NCBI RefSeq assembly: GCF_013167455.1
Contig: NZ_CP038328.1
Reading direction: 5' to 3' (one strand)
Length of the DNA: 64,000 bases
Source of the DNA: Escherichia coli O157:H7
GTDB lineage: Bacteria > Pseudomonadota > Gammaproteobacteria > Enterobacterales > Enterobacteriaceae
The notes beneath the pieces were generated by a model, which did no database searches, was not told the DNA's origin, and worked only from the letters and a program-made list of their open reading frames with translations. This document shows, in pieces, positions 57,408 to 58,259 of this stretch (positions within the stretch are counted from its first letter, which is position 1; every line of letters begins with the position of its first letter). The position numbers and the translations under genes are program-made.

Positions 57408-58259
57408 TTATCTCATAATACCCATAAAGCCATGCACTCCCATATACACCCCGACTAAACCAATTAACAGACTGGAAAAATAGGGGGCGCGTTTAGCGAG
57501 AGTGTTAAATCCGCTCCAGCGTTTTGCAACTTGTTGAACACTGATTGCCGCTCCAACGCCTACTGTAACCAGCGTTAGTGCCAGACCGATGCTGAAACTG
57601 ACGACCAGTGTTGCGCCCAGTGTCAGGGCTTTCAACTGAATGCAAATCAACAGCACGGTAATTGCTGCCGGGCAGGGAATAAGGCCACCTGTTAAGCCAA
57701 ATAACAAAATTTGCCAGTTGGTGACCTCTCTACCATCAAAGCGTCGTTTAATGTCATTGGCATGGGCTCGTGCATGGGCATCCTGATACTCTTCGTTGTC
57801 GCCATGTTCATGATGGTGATGATGTTCGTGGTCGTGGTCGTGGTCGTGGTCGTGGTCGTGGTCTTGATGATGTTCGTGATCGTGGTGATGATGCTCATGC
57901 ATATTCTCCAGCCAGTTGCGTTCGCCGCGCCAGGTACGCCAGAACATCCAGAAAGCGGTGCTAATAATGATCACTGCGGAAATCAACTGGAGCCACGGTT
58001 CTGCTGATTGAGCAGTAAAGCGCTTGCTGATCACCATCCCGCCAAAGGCAATCAACCAGACCACTGCGGTATGCGAAATGGTTGCTGCCAGTCCGAGCAT
58101 CACCGCCTGTTTAATGGTGCCTTTGATGGCGATGATAAACGCCGCCATCATCGTTTTTGAGTGCCCTGGTTCCAGGCCATGAAGCGCACCAAGTAAGATG
58201 GCGCTGGGGATGAAGAACCAGGCGTTTCCTTGCTGAAGAAGAGTTGTAAATTCGGTCAT
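57408..58259 (-). CDS. rcnA: Nickel/cobalt efflux protein RcnA with histidine-rich cytoplasmic loop
   Basis: Multi-TM protein with HEHHHHDHEHHQDHDHDHDHDHDHEHHHHHEH loop; divergent from rcnR. Confidence 0.9.
   Translation of the reverse strand: MTEFTTLLQQGNAWFFIPSAILLGALHGLEPGHSKTMMAAFIIAIKGTIKQAVMLGLAATISHTAVVWLIAFGGMVISKRFTAQSAEPWLQLISAVIIISTAFWMFWRTWRGERNWLENMHEHHHHDHEHHQDHDHDHDHDHDHEHHHHHEHGDNEEYQDAHARAHANDIKRRFDGREVTNWQILLFGLTGGLIPCPAAITVLLICIQLKALTLGATLVVSFSIGLALTLVTVGVGAAISVQQVAKRWSGFNTLAKRAPYFSSLLIGLVGVYMGVHGFMGIMR
57828..57863. repeat. Hexanucleotide tandem repeat (GTGGTC)6 encoding the (HD)n part of the RcnA His-rich loop
   Basis: Six exact copies seen in sequence. Confidence 0.8.

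Follow-up and report, generated by a model that had tools for sequence, protein, structure and literature searches.

The histidine-rich loop of the nickel/cobalt efflux protein RcnA is encoded in Escherichia coli O157:H7 by a sequence that contains a short, perfect hexanucleotide repeat. This raises the question whether the repeat changes its length between strains, by which process it does so, and whether such changes matter for the protein. We addressed these points starting from a stretch of 64,000 nucleotides of the O157:H7 genome, in the following referred to as the window. The features discussed below are collected in the table at the end of the next section.

The hexanucleotide tract in rcnA and its surroundings

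According to the original prediction, six copies of GTGGTC at 57828-57863 encode the His-Asp part of the RcnA loop. Direct reading of the sequence confirms the six copies with no mismatch, and on the coding (minus) strand they read (GACCAC)6, which translates to (Asp-His)6, i.e., residues 133-144 of RcnA, in the context ...HEHHHHDHEHHQ(DH)6EHHHHHEHGDNEE.... The perfect period-6 run is two bases longer than the six copies (57826-57863, 38 nt, 6.33 copies), and Tandem Repeats Finder reports a looser, imperfect period-6 array at 57826-57886. When the window was shuffled 200 times, the longest run with perfect period 6 was 13.7 nt on average and 17 nt at most, so that chance does not explain a run of 38 nt. 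All GACCAC units are composed of the same two codons, while the adjoining His codons are a mixture of CAT and CAC. This uniformity within the tract fits recent slippage.

The open reading frame of 283 aa that harbors the tract is clearly assigned to the RcnA/NicO family. NCBIfam model NF007454 covers residues 1-283 of 283 with 580.6 bits (cut-off 195), and Pfam PF03824 NicO matches with 240.4 bits (cut-off 27.7), both above the curated thresholds. Its sequence agrees with rcnA of O157:H7 genomes at 100% identity, and all matching E. coli genomes annotate it as rcnA. Along this line, the order rcnR-rcnA-rcnB and the TACT-G6-N-AGTA-type motifs in the intergenic region represent the neighborhood that is expected for RcnA. 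For the K-12 protein, Ni/Co efflux and resistance are known (Rodrigue 2005, as cited in PMC7055735). The core of the loop, with 19 His, 9 Asp and 6 Glu in 39 residues, lies within a hydrophilic stretch (residues ~109-183) with hydrophobic segments on either side, as deduced from hydropathy. Its Arg/Lys-rich flanks suggest a location on the cytoplasmic side, and a cytoplasmic loop is also predicted for the RcnA family by DeepTMHMM (PMC11247825).

Over positions 44000-64000 the window aligns in one piece with EDL933 (NZ_CP008957.1) and other O157:H7 chromosomes (20,001 versus 19,981 bases). The only length difference to EDL933 within these 20 kb is a 20-bp unit in the region between rcnA and rcnR. 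Here, three RcnR-type operator motifs are found at 58297-58311, 58317-58331 and 58337-58351, which read TACTCCCCCCCAGTA and then twice TACTACCCCCCAGTA; the documented RcnR operator consists of two sites (PMC7055735). The third motif is derived from a perfect 20-bp tandem duplication, and the intergenic region 58260-58399 comprises 140 nt versus the usual 120 nt. Among 5,361 complete E. coli genomes, five have a three-site operator, and O157:H7 is not represented among these five. They go back to at least two different duplication events: the duplication of the window is shared by EC26, N39 and N47, it is combined with a loss of 1 nt in the C-tract in O111:H8 8E, and in WW2 site 1 has undergone another duplication, of 23 bp. 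The three-site arrangement in the window could be genuine, as a rare regulatory variant that may alter RcnR repression of rcnA/rcnR, or it could stem from an error of the source assembly.

Two further observations concern the surroundings of the gene. Downstream of rcnR, positions 58782-59453 hold two small minus-strand ORFs (104 aa and 115 aa) with signal-peptide-like N-termini; the annotation of O55:H7 names them 'outer membrane protein' and 'hypothetical protein'. In K-12-like genomes, the TPP riboswitch and thiM come directly after rcnR. Elsewhere in the window, a 45-bp tandem repeat at 23786-23876 (2 copies, 84% match) translates as collagen-like Gly-X-Y triplets; our guess from this pattern is a prophage gene of the tail-fibre type.

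Table. Location of the repeat tract, its typing primers and the neighboring features in the window.
Feature	Position	Strand	Basis
rcnB (yohN), accessory protein, downstream of rcnA	56852..57190	-	Pfam RcnB; annotation of homologous loci
rcnA (yohM), nickel/cobalt efflux protein, 283 aa	57408..58259	-	ORF and family matches
TR7 primer TGCTGAAACTGACGACCAGT, exact single match	57590..57609	+	primer from PMC2246123
His-rich loop core, residues about 121-160	57780..57899	-	hydropathy, composition, period-6 array
(GACCAC)6 coding VNTR = TR7 / O157-19	57828..57863	-	sequence, translation, published unit and primers
TR7 primer CGCAGTGATCATTATTAGC, exact single match	57960..57978	-	primer from PMC2246123
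Three RcnR-type motifs, TACT-N-C6-AGTA = reverse complement of TACT-G6-N-AGTA	58297..58351	.	motif, sequence comparison
rcnR, Ni/Co-responsive repressor of rcnA, divergent from rcnA	58400..58672	+	ORF and family matches

Identity with the typing locus TR7 / O157-19

The tract is already known. It is a standard locus for multilocus VNTR typing (MLVA) of O157:H7, named TR7 in the Noller scheme (Noller et al. 2003) and O157-19 in the Keys scheme (Keys et al. 2005); the published locus and the tract in the window are the same, without any difference. TR7 is listed with the unit GACCAC and the primers CGCAGTGATCATTATTAGC and TGCTGAAACTGACGACCAGT (PMC2246123), and it has been equated with O157-19, whose unit is likewise 6 bp (PMC3768571). 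The two primers face the tract from opposite strands and delimit a predicted amplicon at 57590-57978, which amounts to 389 bp at six units. Thus, the flanking primer pair, the 6-bp GACCAC unit and the polymorphic copy number in O157:H7 (see below) all agree with TR7. EDL933 has been typed at this locus as 6 repeats (PMC3777172), the same number as in the window.

Typing studies have also characterized the behavior of the locus. In parallel serial passage, TR7 gained a single unit once and lost a single unit twice, with a combined rate of 1.3e-4 per generation (PMC3777172). The medians of O157-19 in individual clades are 6-7 (PMC10062581), and published diversity indices of TR7 range from 0.65 to 0.71 (PMC2246123, PMC3768571). 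The MLVA papers that we read do not mention the His-rich loop of RcnA as the product of the locus, and a literature search for rcnA/yohM combined with E. coli VNTR returned Salmonella papers only.

Copy number among E. coli genomes and the origin of length differences

To compare the copy number across rcnA alleles, we constructed synthetic alleles, each composed of 182 nt of window flank on either side and n repeat units, and ran them as queries against all 5,426 complete E. coli genomes. Genomes were counted at an identity of at least 99%, a band which tolerates up to about 3 substitutions; the flanks were mostly 100% identical. One query per length class was used, as a single 400-nt query with a strict E-value returned only the exact class and its neighbors with one unit more or less, and missed the genomes with four units. 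Likely, the strict cut-off dropped alignments before the final gapped extension.

The copy number is not invariant. The loci fetched first already differed, with seven units in one (L001) and four in another (L002), while their loops were otherwise identical. In the full comparison, four units were found in 32 genomes, including Sakai, five in 21, six in 132, seven in 64 (including EC4115, with a match of 406 bp), eight in 23, nine in 9, ten in 7, plus two variants of equal length, and eleven in 4. No genome with three units was counted, and none with twelve was seen in the same search of 5,426 complete genomes that recovered ten and eleven units. In total, eight length classes are distributed over 292 complete genomes, with a mode of six and a diversity index of 0.72; these counts refer to assemblies that include outbreak series and laboratory derivatives, and hence represent neither a random sample nor population frequencies. 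Both the index and the allele range agree with the published data for TR7.

All differences between alleles are multiples of 6, and therefore every allele remains in frame. The translated alleles with four to seven units are intact and differ only by the number of DH pairs; a further locus (L015) is annotated in RefSeq with an intact CDS of 858 nt. The expectation that slippage expands and contracts the tract in frame, and thereby alters the loop length between strains, is borne out by four to eleven units between flanks that are at least 99% identical. Independently of the tract, the annotation of GPEC1446 (L009) and FDN-9 (L013) lists rcnA as a pseudogene with a frameshift, which in both cases lies outside the GACCAC repeat. 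Each of four E. coli genome searches also returned one rcnA match on a plasmid-class record.

Short tandem repeats are prone to mis-assembly, and one may ask whether the length differences merely reflect sequencing or assembly errors in a region of low complexity. We consider this explanation negligible. A tract of 36 bp is below any read length, the six-unit allele alone is present in 132 complete genomes, and two decades of PCR fragment typing have yielded the same range of alleles, including the value of 6 for EDL933.

On a wider scale, alleles with a GACCAC tract form one family of rcnA, whose loop ends with GDNEE and which comprises about 341 genomes by whole-gene identity, mostly O157:H7. 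Unrelated strains likewise bear the tract, with four to six units, in loops of two other N-terminal types (L011-L014). About 5,000 of the 5,365 genomes that bear rcnA encode a K-12-type protein of 274 aa, the loop of which is free of the tract. Among cluster representatives in the protein database, loop length varies from 30 to 56 residues; the longest loop (P0037) has 56 residues, and some database alleles contain larger internal duplications of the loop. The best 120 RcnA matches of our protein search were all from Escherichia/Shigella, with none from other genera among them. Within the same loop, a 269-aa RcnA (WP_061092862.1; L005 EC0585 and L019 WW2) likewise contains a perfect hexanucleotide coding repeat, (CACGAG)5 = (His-Glu)5. 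It differs from the window in its unit, is located on the N-terminal side of the loop, and belongs to a separate allele family.

O55:H7 CB9615 (L016) reveals a composite pattern. Its rcnA is identical to that of the window over 57900-58259, the 5' part of the gene, whereas the loop, the 3' half and the spacer between rcnA and rcnB are divergent throughout 57300-57900, and the encoded loop is K-12-like (274-aa protein) and without GACCAC tract. The O157:H7 gene is mosaic with respect to O55:H7, which suggests a patch of recombination, one boundary of which lies near the loop.

Such mosaicism at a deeper level, together with the presence of the tract in other loop types of unrelated strains (L011, L012, L014), would be compatible with homologous recombination as a source of the length differences, by import of other rcnA alleles instead of local slippage. 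However, across all eight length classes of the O157 group, each of the two 182-nt flanks is at least 99% and mostly 100% identical. Within rcnA, exactly one unit separates the seven-unit allele L001 from the window, and over 1.8 kb the only other difference between the two is the 20-bp operator unit. Moreover, unit changes arise de novo during clonal passage (PMC3777172). An origin of the length classes by allele import is therefore very improbable.

In our view, which we hold with high confidence, TR7 is a slippage minisatellite in the RcnA loop that changes in frame by whole units and probably serves as a near-neutral lineage marker. Replication slippage, i.e., slipped-strand mispairing on the perfect tract, adds or removes whole 6-bp units, and each unit alters the loop, rich in metal ligands, by one Asp-His pair while the frame is kept. 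Within the observed range, such changes would be nearly neutral, and the tract would mainly mark lineages and not act as a switch.

Related repeats and the meaning of tract length

Phase-variable contingency loci, as in Neisseria, Haemophilus and Campylobacter, also depend on slipped-strand mispairing at perfect short tandem repeats within genes, and their simple-sequence repeats switch expression on and off. In contrast to TR7, the units of these loci are not multiples of 3, or the repeats are located in promoters. The TR7 unit corresponds to two codons, the alleles are in frame without any frame shift, and those translated (four to seven units) are intact. Thus, the tract cannot be an on/off switch of phase variation, and we rejected this candidate.

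The closest relative is found in Salmonella enterica, where yohM, the ortholog of rcnA, carries a CACGAC repeat that is used as MLVA locus STTR5 (PMC1781188, PMC5183578). CACGAC is the GACCAC hexamer in another register; hence, the orthologous genes share the same repeat unit, in frame and with single-unit changes in passage. Apart from the species, STTR5 differs from TR7 by its longer arrays, with a median of 10 units, a mid-range of 8-14 and up to 26 units. According to the authors of the STTR5 work, the repeat is placed between two domains of YohM, the Ni/Co resistance protein; they suggested that extreme lengths may impair YohM and argued for stabilizing selection on loop length (PMC1781188, PMC5183578).

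Beyond the orthologs, a scan of one genome per species yielded at least 120 loci in which GACCAC is repeated five times or more. In 77 among the loci listed, the longest open frame reads DH. The 65 DH ORFs among the matches listed mostly belong to metal-handling proteins, with CDF (12), CobW (8), P-type ATPase (6), ZnuA (5), LarC (4), ZrgA (3), ZIP (3), ZinT (2) and NicO (2) proteins among them. DH-coding hexamer tracts in metal-binding loops therefore appear as a common theme: as in RcnA, the GACCAC tract is read as DH in loops of CDF, ZIP, CobW/COG0523, ZnuA and P1B-ATPase proteins from many phyla, although these proteins are unrelated to RcnA.

This raises the question whether tract length is under selection as an adaptive tuning knob, setting the metal-binding capacity or kinetics of RcnA and thus providing heritable and reversible Ni/Co tolerance. 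Several findings point in this direction. The tract is made up of metal-ligand residues in a loop that is thought to bind or chelate Ni/Co, and the RcnA loop of cable bacteria is greatly expanded (PMC11247825). DH-coding tracts are, as described, found overwhelmingly in metal-handling proteins, and the copy number is bounded around its mode. On the other hand, the 274-aa protein without tract prevails in E. coli, so that function does not require a long DH tract, the stable clade medians of 6-7 fit a slowly drifting marker, and our literature search found no study, and no phenotype data, relating DH-tract length to Ni/Co resistance. Adaptive tuning is thus an unlikely explanation. Near-neutrality is more likely, because most E. 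coli lack the tract and the clade medians are stable. The bounded distribution (4-11 units, mode six) could reflect either mutation bias or stabilizing selection on loop length.

Altogether, the tract is an ordinary, known feature and a routine typing marker, and its interpretation as a site of in-frame slippage is supported. In itself it matters little, since MLVA of O157:H7 uses it as a standard marker in outbreak typing. A modest added value arises from the explicit link between marker and function: each allele of TR7/O157-19 corresponds to its own length of the RcnA metal-binding loop, and hence existing MLVA collections already constitute a natural allelic series for a possible effect of loop length on Ni/Co homeostasis. 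A review-type statement notes that it is not settled whether RcnA is purely an exporter or also a chelator by means of its loop (PMC11247825). That RcnA's capacity for Ni/Co buffering or export is set by how long the DH tract is, such that O157:H7 sublineages with four to eleven units differ heritably in tolerance, is a conjecture to which we assign a low probability. If it were true, the typing marker TR7 would double as a functional tuning knob, and the same would hold for STTR5 in Salmonella.
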